From Pseudobdellovibrionaceae bacterium (GTDB lineage: Bacteria > Bdellovibrionota > Bdellovibrionia > Bdellovibrionales > Bdellovibrionaceae): a stretch of 32,426 bases of DNA. A model generated the notes under the pieces. The model was not told where the DNA came from. It did no database searches and saw only the letters and a program-made list of their open reading frames with translations. Made by a program: the position numbers and the translations under genes. The DNA lies in contig JBIKLL010000025.1 of NCBI GenBank assembly GCA_044359815.1, positions 1 through 32,426 on the forward strand, in the 5' to 3' direction. Shown here piece after piece: positions 27,590-32,426 of this stretch; the first letter of the stretch is position 1; every line of letters begins with the position of its first letter.

Positions 27590-28141
27590 CTATTTATCTT
27601 TCATTAAATTCTTTAATTGTTTGTGGCCAACTGAAACAATCAATCGCAGAGCTTCAGACTCTGAAGATAAATTCATCATTTCTTTGACCTCTCGAATCAA
27701 ATTTTGAGTAGTGGAATCCAGGCTGTCAGTGGCTTTCTTAGAGCTATAACTGGGGGGCTCGGTAAATGATGTGTCTTTTTGGATGGCTTCTTCCTTGGGC
27801 GCAGCTTGGCGGTTGTTATTGGGCTGTGCCGTTTGCGATGCCACATTAGGATTTTTTGGATTTGTGTTTTGTAAAGGTGGGGCTTGATAATTTGCTGTGG
27901 GATTTGAATCCAAATCACCCATCAATCCAGCCAGATTTTTCAGTTCGGCCTTAAAATTTTTAATACTGGGTCTTTCCAGAAAATCATTTCCCTGCGATTT
28001 ATATTTCAAATACAGGCTTACTAAAATATCAGGAGTGGAGGCGATTTCTTTAATGCTGTCGTTCTGATTCTGCAGCCACGCATAAGCCTGCACCAATGTG
28101 TCTCTGGTATAGGCTTGAGGTGGAATGGGATTCATGGCCAT
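27590..28141 (-). CDS. hypothetical protein: helical N-domain, Q/N/P-rich linker, small C-domain (ribbon-helix-helix-like)
   Basis: Intact 183-aa ORF filling the gap between the regulator and ileS in the same orientation. Confidence 0.75.
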   Translation of the reverse strand: MAMNPIPPQAYTRDTLVQAYAWLQNQNDSIKEIASTPDILVSLYLKYKSQGNDFLERPSIKNFKAELKNLAGLMGDLDSNPTANYQAPPLQNTNPKNPNVASQTAQPNNNRQAAPKEEAIQKDTSFTEPPSYSSKKATDSLDSTTQNLIREVKEMMNLSSESEALRLIVSVGHKQLKNLMKDK

Positions 28142-28162: not shown

Positions 28163-29644
28163 TTAGATTGCAAAGTCTCTTGCATTGATTCCGTATTTTT
28201 CGATTTTGCGGAGCAAAGTCTTTTTAGGAATATTTGCATGAAGTGCTGTCTGGTTGATTCTGCCTTTAAAAGTTTTAAGGGCCTTAATGATGAATTCTTT
28301 TTCAAAGGCTTCTTTTTGAGCGTTAAAATCAAGACCCTCAGTGGCGCCTACTGTCGAAGTCTCTAAGGGTTCATCATCAGTCAGATCATCGGTGCCAAAG
28401 GATTCTAAATCCTCTTCTGTTTCAGCGGTTACCCGTAATGCGATCTCGTCATGAGCATCAGGGATTGAGCATCCAATTGTTTTCAAAACAGATTCTGGCA
28501 GGGATGCCAGTGATAGCAGATTTGAAGTTTCCATAACAAACATATGTTCAATGACATTTTCAAGCTCACGGATATTTCCGGGCCAGTCGTATTTTTTCAG
28601 TGCATTAAGAGTGTCGCCCGCAACGCCCACGATTCTTTTACTGTGAGTGGTGTTGAATTTGCGGATAAACATAGTGATTAAATTTTCTAAATCATCTTTG
28701 CGATCAACAAGGGATGGTAAATACACAGGGATAACATTTAATCGATAAAACAAATCATCACGAAATTCACCGGTCTTGATCATTTGTTCCAGTGGCCTGT
28801 TGGTGGCGGCGACTATCCTGACATTGGTAGGGATTTCGCGGTTAGAACCAACCGGCATAAAGACCTTTTCTTGTAATACCCTAAGTAATTTTACCTGCAT
28901 CATTAAAGGCAAATCACCGACCTCATCCAAAAATAAGGTGCCGCCTTCAGCATACTGAAATTTTCCGATCTTGCGCTGATCTGCTCCAGTGAAAGAGCCC
29001 TTTTCATGTCCAAACAATTCAGACTCAAACAAATTTTCAGGAATGGCTGAACAATTGATGGCAACAAATTTTTCGTCTTTGCGGGCCGAATTGAAATGGA
29101 TGGCTCTGGCAACAAGCTCTTTACCCGTACCGGAAGCTCCACGAATCAAAACAGGAGTGTCAACTTTGGAAACTCTGTGAATGACTCCAAAAACCTTCTG
29201 CATTTGCTGATTTGAACCAATAAATTTTTTGCCGTTTTCAACCAAAACAGGGGCGCTGGCGGCAACATTTGAAATCAGATTGACGGCCAACAAAGCTTTG
29301 TCGATCAGCTTAATTAACTCATCAATTTGCACTGGTTTTGAAAGGTAATTGTAGGCACCGTCTTTTACAGCTTGAACAGCGTTGTCGATGGTCGCAAACG
29401 CAGTCAGCATGATCACGATGATTCCTGGATTAAATTCCTTGATCGCTTTTAAGGCTTCATGTCCATTCAGTCTGGGCATGTCGACGTCCAAAACGACGAC
29501 ATCAAAATTTCCTGAGTTTATTTTTTCTACGGCGTGCAGTCCATCAAAGGCATCTTCAACTTCAAAGCGGTTAGTGCTCAGCAAGCTTGATTTCATTGAC
29601 TGTCTGAGTCCTTGATCGTCATCAACTACTAAGATTTTAATCAT
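28163..29644 (-). CDS. sigma54-dependent response regulator (NtrC family: REC-AAA+-Fis HTH)
   Basis: ILVVDDD and VLDVDMP receiver motifs; GASGTGKE; ESELFGHEKGSFTGA; FLDEV; FRDDLFYRLNV; WPGNIRELEN; C-terminal HTH. Confidence 0.96.
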   Translation of the reverse strand: MIKILVVDDDQGLRQSMKSSLLSTNRFEVEDAFDGLHAVEKINSGNFDVVVLDVDMPRLNGHEALKAIKEFNPGIIVIMLTAFATIDNAVQAVKDGAYNYLSKPVQIDELIKLIDKALLAVNLISNVAASAPVLVENGKKFIGSNQQMQKVFGVIHRVSKVDTPVLIRGASGTGKELVARAIHFNSARKDEKFVAINCSAIPENLFESELFGHEKGSFTGADQRKIGKFQYAEGGTLFLDEVGDLPLMMQVKLLRVLQEKVFMPVGSNREIPTNVRIVAATNRPLEQMIKTGEFRDDLFYRLNVIPVYLPSLVDRKDDLENLITMFIRKFNTTHSKRIVGVAGDTLNALKKYDWPGNIRELENVIEHMFVMETSNLLSLASLPESVLKTIGCSIPDAHDEIALRVTAETEEDLESFGTDDLTDDEPLETSTVGATEGLDFNAQKEAFEKEFIIKALKTFKGRINQTALHANIPKKTLLRKIEKYGINARDFAI

Positions 29645-29757
29645 ATCTGAAAATCCCTCCCAACCAGGTTTTCAGTAGTACCACAGGGATTTTAGCAGGC
29701 TCAAGCAAGTTCAGATAAAATGCAAAGTGTTCGCTAGTTTACGGCAGTAAAGCAGAG

Positions 29758-29766
29758 ATTATAGCA
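29758..29766 (-). promoter_or_regulatory. candidate extended -10 promoter between the kinase and the response regulator
   Basis: Minus strand TG-C-TATAAT (perfect consensus) just after the kinase stop; a second TG-C-TAAAAT at 29689-29697. Confidence 0.5.
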
Positions 29767-29773
29767 TAAGTAA

Positions 29774-31663
29774 TTAAATGAATGGTTGTTTCTGGATTGG
29801 CAGCACAATTGAAAACGTCGAACCCGCTCCCAATGAGCTTTCCACAGAGATTTCCCCACCGTGCAGCTCAACAAAGTATTTGGCCAGATAAAGCCCTAGG
29901 CCGCTGCCTTTAATGGTTGAGGATTTGGCGTTTTTGGATCGAAAAAATTTCATAAAAACATTGGAAATTTCATCACTTGGGATGCCTATGCCCTGATCTG
30001 CAACCTGGATCATCACCCCGTTGGTTGATTCCTCGGTAGAAATCAGAATCTTGGATCCTTCGGGACTGTATTTAATGGCGTTTTCGATCAGGTTGGCCAG
30101 CACCTGTCTGATCAGCTCGGGATCCAACGAAATCGAAAATAAGGGTTCCAATTCCAATACAAAATTGATCCCTTTGGATTTTGCCATAAAGTCGAATTTT
30201 TTAATGGTCTCGCGAACTAACTGATTGATATCCCTGCTTTCGACATGCAGTTCGATCCCCTGGCTTTCGATTTTTGTATAGTTCAAGATTGTGTTAATAA
30301 ATTTAACTAAATCTTCAGATGAAGATTTAATTGTATCCACGGCTTCAGCTTGCGCGGTCGACAGGGCGTTGTGATCTCGTTTAATAAGATCGGTCATTCC
30401 CTGAATCCGAGCCAGAGGGGTTTTTAAATCGTGAGACATCATACCAACAAAATTAGTCTTCAGTGTTTCAACCTCGGATAATAGTTTGTGTTTTTGGTAG
30501 TATTCCCAAGATCTGCGGTTTTCGACAATCAAGCGGTAAGGAATAAAAAAATAGTAGCACAGAAAAACTGCCAGCAAGGGGTGTGATAACTCAATGATAA
30601 TCCCAAATGGATAAAATCCCAAATAAGCAACCAAGCACAGCACTAAACAAGACAGGACTACTAAAATGATTCCTTTCAGCGGTTTAGCAATCAAAACGAT
30701 CTGCACAGTGAATATTGAAATTAAAATAGTGATCAATAAATCCAACCAGTAATTGGTTCTGGTGGGAGACGAGTTTCGTATTAAAGTTTCGATCATGTTT
30801 GCATGAAGCTCTATCATTGGGAGAGCTTCGGGGGATGGGTCCAGTGGGGTGGCTACGTAAAAATCAAATGACTGTCTGAAGTCATCACCAATTAAGACAA
30901 TTTTGTCTTTGAGCTCGTTAGGATCAAAATCCCCTGCGACGACGTTTTCAAAAGGTAGTGTTTTGAAAAATCCTTTTTTGTTGTAGTCGATTAATATTTG
31001 CAGGGATTCAAGGGTTTCAAAAACCCCTTTGATGTTTTTGATGTCTGAAACCGCAGGATTGTAATGGGATGCCAGCTCTTGGTGCAAAAATGTTTGATCC
31101 TGATAGGAAATTAAAATCCGTCTGGAGACTTTATCTTTTGCAAAAGTGTTTTTATCTTTGGTGTGCGGAGCCGAGGCCACCGGTAAAAAATCAAGAGGGG
31201 GCTTTAGGTTCAGGGAACCGTGTTGGCCCTTGATCGCAGTTTCGTCAACAGCCACCACCAGATTTTTGGTGTCTTTTGCGGATTGGATAAACGTATTTGT
31301 GTCTGAAATAGATCCACCAAGAGATTTTAGATCAGAAAAATAGACAAGCTTATAGGCTTGGGTTGTTTTTAGTTTTTCTAACAGTTTTGCGTGGTCAGCA
31401 AAGCTGGGCAGCCTGCCCAATTTAAAAACGGATTCCCGATCAGCAACTATTAAAACAATTTTCTGTGATGAGCTTTGAGTCGGCTTCAGTTGGACTCTGA
31501 CGTCATAAAAAAAACCGTCTAGCTGGTTGGTTGGAATTTTAGTTATTAAAAATGCTACGATGGACGCAAAAAAAGCTCTCTGTAAAAAAACAAATGGGGT
31601 ATTTGCTACCCCATCGAAATTTTTGCCTAATGAAAAATTTAAAAACTTTCTAAAATCAAACAT
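29774..31663 (-). CDS. CHASE2-domain membrane sensor histidine kinase
   Basis: YDVRVQL...KIVLIVAD, DKVSRR, LKDKIVLIG and IELHANMIETL followed by three TM helices (CHASE2 architecture); H-box SHDLKTPL; N-box NLIENAIKYS; DQGIG; GSGLGL. Confidence 0.9.
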   Translation of the reverse strand: MFDFRKFLNFSLGKNFDGVANTPFVFLQRAFFASIVAFLITKIPTNQLDGFFYDVRVQLKPTQSSSQKIVLIVADRESVFKLGRLPSFADHAKLLEKLKTTQAYKLVYFSDLKSLGGSISDTNTFIQSAKDTKNLVVAVDETAIKGQHGSLNLKPPLDFLPVASAPHTKDKNTFAKDKVSRRILISYQDQTFLHQELASHYNPAVSDIKNIKGVFETLESLQILIDYNKKGFFKTLPFENVVAGDFDPNELKDKIVLIGDDFRQSFDFYVATPLDPSPEALPMIELHANMIETLIRNSSPTRTNYWLDLLITILISIFTVQIVLIAKPLKGIILVVLSCLVLCLVAYLGFYPFGIIIELSHPLLAVFLCYYFFIPYRLIVENRRSWEYYQKHKLLSEVETLKTNFVGMMSHDLKTPLARIQGMTDLIKRDHNALSTAQAEAVDTIKSSSEDLVKFINTILNYTKIESQGIELHVESRDINQLVRETIKKFDFMAKSKGINFVLELEPLFSISLDPELIRQVLANLIENAIKYSPEGSKILISTEESTNGVMIQVADQGIGIPSDEISNVFMKFFRSKNAKSSTIKGSGLGLYLAKYFVELHGGEISVESSLGAGSTFSIVLPIQKQPFI

Positions 31664-31669
31664 CCAAAA

Positions 31670-31825
31670 TTAGCGTGATGATTGATCTGTAGGTAGGCAT
31701 TTCAATGATCTGCCTGCCACAGTGACTTTAGTTCCTTGAGAAAGTTTTCTAACGTGAATTTTTGTTGAAGCAGTCACAGCTTTTGAAGCGTCAGTTTTTT
31801 TAACTGGATTCGTATTCTGGTTCAT
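31670..31825 (-). CDS. 51-aa peptide MNQNTNPVKKTDASKAVTASTKIHVRKLSQGTKVTVAGRSLKCLPTDQSSR; candidate RiPP precursor
   Basis: Translated by hand and absent from the ORF track. Strong SD AAGGAGA 5 nt before the ATG; begins 13 nt after the SPASM gene stop and ends 6 nt before the kinase ATG, filling the whole gap. Confidence 0.8.
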   Translation of the reverse strand: MNQNTNPVKKTDASKAVTASTKIHVRKLSQGTKVTVAGRSLKCLPTDQSSR

Positions 31826-31838
31826 AGGGTTCTCCTTT

Positions 31839-32426
31839 TCAGGCTTCGCCTTGTGGCGATCTGCATTTAAGATAATATAAGATTGATGATAAAAGCAAGG
31901 ACCGAGTTCTGTCGCAAAAAGATTTTACGGGTTTATTTTTGTCACCGTTCACTCTTTTGTGAATGTACGAACAACCGCCAGCACAAAGGTTTTTAGCCCA
32001 GCAGCTCTGACAATCAGTTTGTTTGCTAATCGGGTCTAAGTACTTGGAAACTGCATCAGAATTCAAAACCGATTCGTGACCGATTTTTTCAGATTTATCA
32101 TTCACGTCCCAAGGGCAAGCAAAAACTTGATTTTGAGAATCGATCATAAAAAACGAATTTCCGGCGCCACAGTAGTGTTTGACCAAAGCCTGTGTGTCGA
32201 GATTGTGAAACAGTTTATTGATCATTTGAATTTTTAAAAGCTCTGATTCCTGTCCAATCTGATAAGCATGCTCTAAGATTTTGTTAAACCCAGCTACAAA
32301 TTCATTGCTGGCATTGAGATCCTCAAAATTCAAATTGTTCATTGTTGAAGAATCATTCTGTCCAGATTGGTCAACAGTCGTTGCTTGACGTTCAGCTTTA
32401 GAGTCGTGATCACCTTTATAGTCGTG
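31839..32426 (-). CDS. radical SAM/SPASM-domain protein, C-terminal part (start lies beyond the window)
   Basis: Seven-Cys SPASM pattern CGAG-..-ACP...CQSC-x5-C-x3-C-x18-C. The frame stays open from 32342 to the window edge. The CxxxCxxC radical SAM motif itself is not visible. Confidence 0.85.
   Translation of the reverse strand, partial: HDYKGDHDSKAERQATTVDQSGQNDSSTMNNLNFEDLNASNEFVAGFNKILEHAYQIGQESELLKIQMINKLFHNLDTQALVKHYCGAGNSFFMIDSQNQVFACPWDVNDKSEKIGHESVLNSDAVSKYLDPISKQTDCQSCWAKNLCAGGCSYIHKRVNGDKNKPVKSFCDRTRSLLLSSILYYLKCRSPQGEA
32391..32426 (-). repeat. 18-bp tandem repeat inside the SPASM-protein gene (at least 2 copies)
   Basis: CACGACTATAAAGGTGAT / CACGACTCTAAAGCTGAA, 15/18 identical (HDYKGD / HDSKAE); runs to the window edge. 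Confidence 0.55.

Follow-up and report, generated by a model that had tools for sequence, protein, structure and literature searches.

At the right-hand end of a 32,426-nucleotide (nt) stretch of DNA from a Pseudobdellovibrionaceae bacterium (hereafter the window), which is the whole of one contig (JBIKLL010000025.1; C109 in our numbering) among the 125 in assembly GCA_044359815.1, we identified part of an operon that combines a peptide maturase, its candidate precursor peptide and a two-component system. On the minus strand, four co-oriented genes follow one another: a fragment of a radical S-adenosylmethionine (SAM) enzyme with a SPASM domain, a 51-amino-acid (aa) open reading frame (ORF), a histidine kinase with a CHASE2 sensor domain and an NtrC-type sigma-54 activator (Table 1). 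Gene content and order are conserved in relatives, the small ORF is protein-coding, the enzyme has the fold class of a thioether synthase, and relatives carry a sigma-54 promoter motif ahead of the maturase gene. We are highly confident that this is an order-wide operon acting as one functional unit and probably activating itself. By sequence criteria, its peptide and enzyme make up an undescribed family resembling peptides that are made on ribosomes and modified after translation (RiPPs), with a new leader, a one-cysteine core and a maturase outside all curated families, confined to predatory Bdellovibrionales among the genomes searched.

To assess gene order we used 16 fetched loci together with a second set of 47 loci labelled Bdellovibrio, Pseudobdellovibrionaceae or Bdellovibrionales, which came from a scan of one genome per species with an enzyme alignment (36–82% identity) and of which at least 6 share genomes with the first 16. 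The order enzyme, kinase, regulator was kept in all 16 loci of the first set, with ileS following in 12. Across the second set, the kinase lay directly after the enzyme in 46 of 47 loci (one contig ends there) and the regulator came next in 37, the other 10 loci ending earlier. These counts counter the concern, raised in the initial annotation, that the maturase–peptide pair and the two-component genes are adjacent by chance. Identity to the enzyme fell sharply, to 32% or less, in 33 radical-SAM loci of other phyla, none of which had these neighbours. The genes upstream of the enzyme vary from locus to locus, and the peptide–kinase junction is invariant while this upstream flank is reshuffled.

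The operon is, as far as detectable matches go, restricted to Bdellovibrionales among the genomes searched. Relatives of the enzyme fragment were present in 22 of 24 other genomes of the same family and in 3 of 16 genomes of other families in the order. In a larger sample of 201 genomes of the order, in which the maturase was counted at E ≤ 1e-40, 99 genomes encode the maturase and 141 the kinase (by its CHASE2 part); both occur together in 96 of the 99, and the three exceptions are metagenome-assembled genomes (MAGs) that are 89, 84 and 57% complete. A phylum sample outside the order gave a maturase match in 1 of 164 genomes (G305:C246:425-1099), partial and on a short contig. The named relatives of the enzyme also support placing the organism in the predatory Bdellovibrio group, in agreement with the earlier guess of a probable predatory Bdellovibrionota. 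The genome that gave the single match outside the order is 89% complete with 4% contamination, and its enzyme match may be mis-binned.

The small ORF is, judged by its conservation, a real precursor gene. An ORF of this kind sits in every enzyme–kinase gap, in 16 of 16 fetched loci and in 46 of 46 of the wider set (43 recognized by pattern and three by eye). Aligned, the encoded peptides share a conserved leader (consensus HIKKxKP), a variable stretch and a short core (GxxCxPxG; GxGCxP). Among 57 distinct peptides, 55 have exactly one cysteine and 54 have proline at +2 from it; glycine occupies position −3 in 40 and −1 in 31, 3–12 residues follow the cysteine, and the cysteine lacks its proline in two loci. 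The peptide in the window is hydrophilic, with a diverged copy of the family leader and a single cysteine followed by x-Pro, 9 residues from the C-terminus; hydropathy revealed no signal peptide, hydrophobic signal segment or membrane-spanning segment in it. In three close pairs, the ratio of non-synonymous to synonymous changes (pN/pS) in the ORF was 0.28 (window versus L161, a metagenome relative), 0.11 and 0.46, indicating purifying selection on its reading frame. With a ribosome-binding site, conserved leader and core, and these pN/pS values, the short ORF noticed beside the maturase holds up as a conserved precursor gene. The peptides match no family in Pfam or NCBIfam, and no further copy is present in the genome. 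At one locus (L053 7253-7560), two tandem precursor gene copies in overlapping frames lie between enzyme and kinase. Separately, a lipoprotein, considered for a cysteine-bearing peptide encoded near lspA and lgt, was ruled out because the peptide lacks a hydrophobic signal segment and because ileS–lspA is a common housekeeping pair.

The enzyme belongs to the maturases that modify such peptides. Against the SPASM domain model TIGR04085, the window fragment scores 43.5 bits (cut-off 27), and its best NCBIfam family matches are all maturases of cysteine-containing peptides, far below the family cut-offs (PapB the best, 59.4 bits against a cut-off of 340). In an alignment with 16 full-length relatives the fragment matches their C-terminal part, and the SPASM cysteines are invariant in all 17 rows, its own included. 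Full-length relatives measure 428–547 aa, with the CxxxCxxC motif and about 70–120 residues ahead of the radical-SAM core (longer in a few over-extended ORFs); the motif is kept in 16 of 16 aligned full-length relatives, which score 58–68 bits for Pfam Radical_SAM, and lies in a region that the contig end cuts off in the window. A search of the assembly for the N-terminal ~270 aa turned up only the window fragment and an unrelated radical-SAM gene in contig C58. Because L161 (86% identical) encodes a full-length 457-aa enzyme with CxxxCxxC, the window's gene is probably intact in the organism too. The first 38 residues of the fragment (32313–32426, minus strand), which are low-complexity, do not align with relatives and are longer than the matching part of L161, are probably a variable linker ahead of the SPASM half.

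Against NCBIfam, the relatives scored 166–180 for the nif11-type maturase (cut-off 518.7), 164–174 for PapB (340) and 144–145 for SCIFF (425). With all family scores so far under their cut-offs, the enzyme falls within the class but in no described family. A profile search found the closest solved structure to be that of PDB entries 5wgg and 5why (E = 1.3e-48), whose title concerns thioether formation. We obtained a predicted model of a relative with a predicted local distance difference test score (pLDDT) of 83.8 and a predicted template-modelling score (pTM) of 0.85, which superposes on both entries over its whole length, N-terminal domain included (452–454 columns, template-modelling score 0.72–0.81); residues 31–98 of the model form a strand-rich domain plus helices (pLDDT about 77–93) that aligned to 5wgg only as part of the whole chain. 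The solved protein we take to be CteB. The assignment of the SPASM gene as a RiPP-type peptide maturase is thereby strengthened, its nearest match in both sequence and fold being a thioether synthase. This closeness makes a thioether link from the single cysteine of the peptide the most likely chemistry, and we regard it as reasonably probable.

Both signalling proteins are well defined. The kinase carries CHASE2 (95 bits, cut-off 26.3), HisKA and HATPase_c, all above their Pfam cut-offs, and hydropathy places a first transmembrane helix at residues ~24–43, CHASE2 at ~44–305 and three more transmembrane helices at ~306–375, followed by HisKA and HATPase_c. With one membrane helix N-terminal to it and three beyond, CHASE2 is predicted to face the periplasm. 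The regulator matches Sigma54_activat (242 bits), Response_reg (98 bits) and HTH_8 (27 bits), likewise above the Pfam cut-offs, and its best NCBIfam matches, NtrC and AtoC, fall below their cut-offs. Relatives of the regulator are 64–73% identical, orthologues of the kinase, located directly after the peptide gene, 43–50%, and rpoN is present in the genome.

A sigma-54 promoter motif precedes the operon in its relatives. We scanned up to 200 nt upstream of the maturase start for a −24/−12 element in 42 loci (five of the 47 begin inside the gene and were left out), using 3000 random windows of the same loci as control. An element scoring at least 13 was present in 29 of 42 loci versus 1.9% of controls; at a score of at least 12 the figures were 37 of 42 versus 9.5%, and at 14 or above, 15 of 42 versus 0.27%. 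The GG and TTGC positions hold and the spacer letters vary between loci. L161 has a sigma-54-type element about 32 nt before its likely start codon, and no element scoring at least 12 was found inside the window's part of the operon. For an operon that has a sigma-54 promoter and encodes a sigma-54 activator, self-activation is the simplest reading; we favour activation by the operon's own regulator with some confidence, though another activator could drive the promoter. In one genus (L028–L032 and L045), only 12–16 nt separate the end of the element from the start codon presumed for the enzyme, pointing either to a leaderless messenger RNA or to a real start further downstream.

From these components we propose an autoinduction loop. 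The maturase, which is built like 5wgg, with a putative leader-recognition domain at its N-terminus followed by radical-SAM and SPASM domains, would bind the HIKKxKP leader of the peptide. It would then modify the short core near the C-terminus (GxGCxP), and a thioether formed by the lone cysteine is the most likely modification. The modified peptide would reach the periplasm and act on the CHASE2 domain of the kinase, and the phosphorylated activator would switch on the sigma-54 promoter before the maturase gene, closing the loop and letting the operon amplify itself. Taken as a whole, from sigma-54 operon through maturase-modified peptide and CHASE2 sensing to self-amplification, this scheme is tentative, and we put it somewhat short of an even chance.

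Whether the kinase senses the peptide was approached by co-folding the CHASE2 domain (residues 44–306) with the peptide, a modelling step proposed in the initial annotation. The pair scored 0.41 against 0.00 for the best of three controls, with runs agreeing in at least 56% of contacts and a partner pLDDT of at least 38. This is a pass by a mark that solved complexes reach in 116 of 157 cases and mismatched pairs in 2 of 215, but it lies in the weak zone, since at 0.60 or below the mark is reached by 18 of the 157 complexes and by both passing mismatches. Lineages that keep the kinase and lack the enzyme bear on the same question. In family f10 (L123, L141–L145), a small lysine-rich, cysteine-free ORF precedes the kinase in 6 of 6 loci; it is fast-evolving and 27–37 aa long in five loci, while in the sixth its longest frame reaches 56 aa, and a sigma-54-like element (score 14) lies ahead of it, 120–172 nt upstream of the kinase. 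In family f3, 3 of 7 loci (L148, L160 and L147) have a perfect sigma-54 consensus, a small ORF and then the kinase, and the other 4 have no such ORF. The f3 ORF, at about −250 to −112 from the kinase start, has a ribosome-binding site, a Sec-type signal peptide, a C-terminal two-cysteine motif and a pN/pS of 0.35; a secreted peptide in this slot points to the periplasm, where CHASE2 sits. These small ORFs are positional analogues only. That the peptide feeds back on the CHASE2 kinase or is sensed by it we consider possible, if still open to real doubt. Within the window's own family, a single sampled member lacks the enzyme (L117, genome G012); between a sigma-54-like element and its kinase lies a cysteine-free ORF of 42 aa that is Gly/Asn/Pro-rich and contains an internal repeat.

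Several observations weigh against the loop. The kinase occurs without the maturase in 45 of 141 kinase-bearing genomes (all sampled members of f3, f5 and f10, most of f6, and G012 of the window's family), and no maturase was found upstream of the kinase in 43 enzyme-less loci. That the kinase and regulator usually occur without the pair had been named in advance as a finding that would speak against a signalling unit, and here the result is mixed, given that 96 of 99 enzyme genomes do have the kinase. Families f5 and f6 have the sigma-54-like element right against the kinase gene, so that a peptide gene would not fit between them, and where enzyme-less lineages do have small ORFs, these showed no detectable homology to the peptide family (best hidden Markov model E 0.47 among 3418 ORFs; E 7–12 for f10). 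The peptide carries no signal sequence, and within 5–7 kb up- or downstream in relatives we found no conserved exporter or protease, nor any conserved immunity gene next to the operon; an exporter or protease had been suggested as possible beyond the right edge of the window, and relatives show instead variable upstream genes (PBP1A, a metallo-beta-lactamase-fold protein, an additional kinase, a candidate outer-membrane barrel and, in one case, an ABC transporter). The input to the co-folding was the full precursor without modification, and how the peptide itself folds is uncertain. The operon's 5′ end is lost at the contig end in the window, so that the promoter is seen in relatives only, and the 7-mers that relatives share upstream of it, examined for a conserved activator site, were only A/T-rich words. 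The loci are, moreover, kin, and counts of promoter and synteny overstate the independent support. Finally, the conserved order and short gaps extend to ileS–lspA–lgt, so synteny may be partly inherited rather than functional.

Published data on Bdellovibrio bacteriovorus HD100 are relevant to when such a unit is expressed. By gene order and annotation only, Bd3357–Bd3360 are probable orthologues of the cassette. According to a supplementary table of PMC2797640, Bd3357 ('heme biosynthesis', 1.6-fold), Bd3358 (hypothetical, 2.0–2.2-fold), Bd3359 (histidine kinase, 2.1–2.2-fold) and Bd3360 (zraR-like, 3.0-fold) are induced when the predator enters the bdelloplast, a rise not seen during host-independent growth, and the paper's main text names Bd3359 and Bd3360. 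The supplements of PMC12546842 give Bd3357 the annotation 'Radical SAM superfamily' and 18 detected peptides; there, Bd3360 protein has its maximum at 3 h with a log2 fold change of +1.96, Bd3359 rises by +0.86, and Bd3358 is undetected. The regulator of the L032 operon, from a named Bdellovibrio genome, clusters at 90% identity or more with proteins labelled B. bacteriovorus; no HD100-labelled protein appeared among the best 120 of 1102 kinase matches, and the L032 regulator cluster is not linked to an HD100 accession. If Bd3357–Bd3360 are orthologous, the unit is induced in prey invasion and growth and could belong to the control of the predatory life cycle.

Other readings of the locus were weighed against the loop. 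The peptide could be an output that the kinase does not detect: CHASE2 would sense another periplasmic cue, for instance one from prey or the cell envelope, the activator would then drive the operon, and the resulting product could be an antimicrobial, a cofactor-like small molecule or an effector for secretion. In the 45 kinase-bearing genomes without the pair, CHASE2 must indeed have another input, the sigma-54 element puts maturase and peptide under an activator of this type, and two-component systems beside RiPP clusters are often only regulators; induction of Bd3357–Bd3360 on prey entry would, for true orthologues, fit a predation-linked product. Yet a core with so few residues after the cysteine, and no immunity or export genes, would be unusual in an antimicrobial, the kinase gene is without exception immediately preceded by the peptide gene, a small-peptide gene is kept or replaced in the same slot in some enzyme-less lineages, and the weak co-folding pass also points away from an undetected product. 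We judge the output reading rather unlikely. A hydrophilic, lysine-rich peptide without a secretion signal or conserved exporter could alternatively modulate the kinase from the cytoplasm or membrane in the manner of MgrB and PhoQ, with the maturase, dependent on iron–sulfur clusters and SAM, feeding in the redox, iron or SAM state. The clusters of radical-SAM/SPASM enzymes are oxygen-labile, and f10 keeps its cysteine-free, lysine-rich ORF before the kinase without a maturase, both of which would suit modulation from inside. This reading is nevertheless improbable in our estimation: regulators of the MgrB type span the membrane, whereas this peptide has no segment that would, the f3 analogue has a signal peptide and so points outward, and the weak co-folding pass was obtained with the periplasmic domain, the one part of the kinase that was co-folded.

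The least credible reading, which we hold to be very improbable, denies any functional link: an ancestor would have acquired the pair by insertion downstream of a regulated promoter, and descendants would have inherited it with the kinase, the regulator and ileS–lspA–lgt as frozen synteny. The same conserved order and short gaps do take in housekeeping genes, and many kinase-bearing lineages either lost the maturase–peptide pair or never had it. Against such an accident stand the absence of any complete genome with the maturase and no kinase (the 3 exceptions among 99 are incomplete MAGs), the free reshuffling of the upstream flank while the maturase–peptide–kinase junction stays fixed, and the position of the promoter, which precedes the maturase and not the kinase wherever the pair is present. 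Extended to its furthest, the autoinduction loop would make the modified one-cysteine peptide a periplasmic autoinducer and the first identified class of CHASE2 ligand, the loop a sensor of confinement or progeny density that times intraperiplasmic growth in predators enclosed within their prey, and the enzyme-less lineages ones that swapped in a Sec-exported disulfide-type or an unmodified peptide. We regard this full version as unlikely. The natural variants (enzyme with cysteine peptide, signal-peptide two-cysteine, cysteine-free and no peptide) offer ready comparisons for the role of the peptide.

The operon shares parts with known systems and matches none of them. Like SCIFF/ranthipeptide systems (the 5wgg/5why synthase, PapB, QhpD), it has an enzyme with a putative leader-binding domain, a radical-SAM core (with CxxxCxxC in the relatives) and a SPASM domain with auxiliary-cluster cysteines, and a precursor gene that adjoins the enzyme and has a cysteine in its core. 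It differs in that the precursor has one cysteine, where those of these systems have six or repeated CxxxD motifs, and another leader, in that its relatives score below every curated cut-off of the SCIFF, PapB and nif11-type equivalogs, and in that the hosts are aerobic predatory Bdellovibrionales and the maturase lies inside a two-component operon. The agr locus of staphylococci and the nisin and subtilin loci (NisRK/SpaRK) are peptide-autoinduction loci that couple a modified peptide to a two-component system. The operon likewise places precursor, maturase, membrane kinase and regulator in one co-oriented locus whose promoter is likely turned on by its own regulator, in positive feedback. 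By proposed function it thus resembles these loci, whereas in protein families the two have nothing in common: none of its parts is homologous to AgrB, AgrD, AgrC or LanB/C/M, and they are instead a periplasmic CHASE2 sensor, a sigma-54 AAA+ activator and a radical-SAM/SPASM maturase, with no exporter or leader protease in the locus and with peptide sensing a proposal.

A description of the cassette was not found in the literature searched, nor does NCBIfam of June 2026 hold a model for the enzyme or the peptide, which is consistent with the earlier impression that no system of this architecture has been described. One parallel to the kinase is that of the Burkholderia 'BiofilmReg' operon, which as presented in PMC5192318 also has a transmembrane helix, an extracytoplasmic CHASE2 domain, three transmembrane helices and a kinase core. 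Its partners are an OmpR-type regulator and a LysM/FecR protein, in place of the sigma-54 activator and upstream peptide–maturase pair seen here, and the factors recognized by CHASE2 are described there as not known (PMC5192318). For a widespread sensor domain without an established ligand in that account (PMC5192318), the operon gives a concrete, genetically linked candidate.

The arrangement of the genes in the window is as first described, with four co-oriented genes and two short gaps that are exact on the sequence: 13 nt from the SPASM stop to the peptide ATG and 6 nt (31664–31669) from the peptide stop to the kinase ATG. The kinase–regulator gap is 129 nt. Short spacing runs on downstream, with 21 nt to a gene for a 183-aa protein, 23 nt to ileS and then lspA and lgt, so short gaps alone do not mark out the four genes.

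Table 1 Features of the operon and its downstream flank in the window
Feature	Position	Strand	Basis or remark
Radical-SAM/SPASM maturase, C-terminal 195 aa (SPASM half)	31839..32426	-	Open at contig end, 5′ part lost
13-nt spacer with ribosome-binding site AAGGAG (31837-31832), 6 nt ahead of the peptide ATG	31826..31838	-	Direct sequence reading
Precursor peptide ORF, 51 aa	31670..31825	-	ORF list; same-position ORFs in relatives
CHASE2 sensor histidine kinase, 629 aa	29774..31663	-	Pfam domains, hydropathy
Terminator-like hairpin, 9-bp stem then T-run, kinase codons 17-27	31593..31615	-	48-70 nt into the kinase ORF
NtrC-type response regulator, 493 aa	28163..29644	-	Pfam: receiver, sigma-54 AAA+ and Fis-type helix-turn-helix (HTH)
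183-aa conserved protein, no family	27590..28141	-	21 nt downstream of the regulator

The junctions had also been described as free of terminator-like hairpins. This holds for the two short gaps, and a hairpin of that type nonetheless lies just inside the kinase ORF (31615..31593). A loose rule detects it in 12 of 43 relatives, mostly as weak structures, so it is not conserved, and a conserved attenuator after the peptide gene was ruled out on that count; in the window the hairpin might partly halt transcription beyond the peptide gene, or be there by chance. The 24 sequencing runs listed for this DNA are all DNA, mostly lake-water metagenomes, and none is RNA.

The 183-aa protein has a conserved N-terminal region of ~80 aa and C-terminal region of ~40 aa joined by a low-complexity linker. 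It matches no Pfam family, and its Atlas matches are hypothetical proteins only, in clusters whose commonest known phylum is Bdellovibrionota. Its gene follows the regulator in 13 of 16 loci and is found in loci without the enzyme as well; it may be a fifth gene of the unit.

On the other flank, examples of the variable genes directly upstream of the enzyme are L032 3583-5787 (−), L069 4079-5896 (+), L027 3548-5296 (+) and L031 3818-5782 (+). Among the variants are an extra kinase that matches CHASE2 weakly, a further same-strand kinase and, once, an SbmA/BacA-like ABC transporter. Often the gene in this position encodes a protein of 650–800 aa that belongs to no family and has a weak likeness to outer-membrane barrels; a 654-aa case matches hypothetical proteins in the Atlas.

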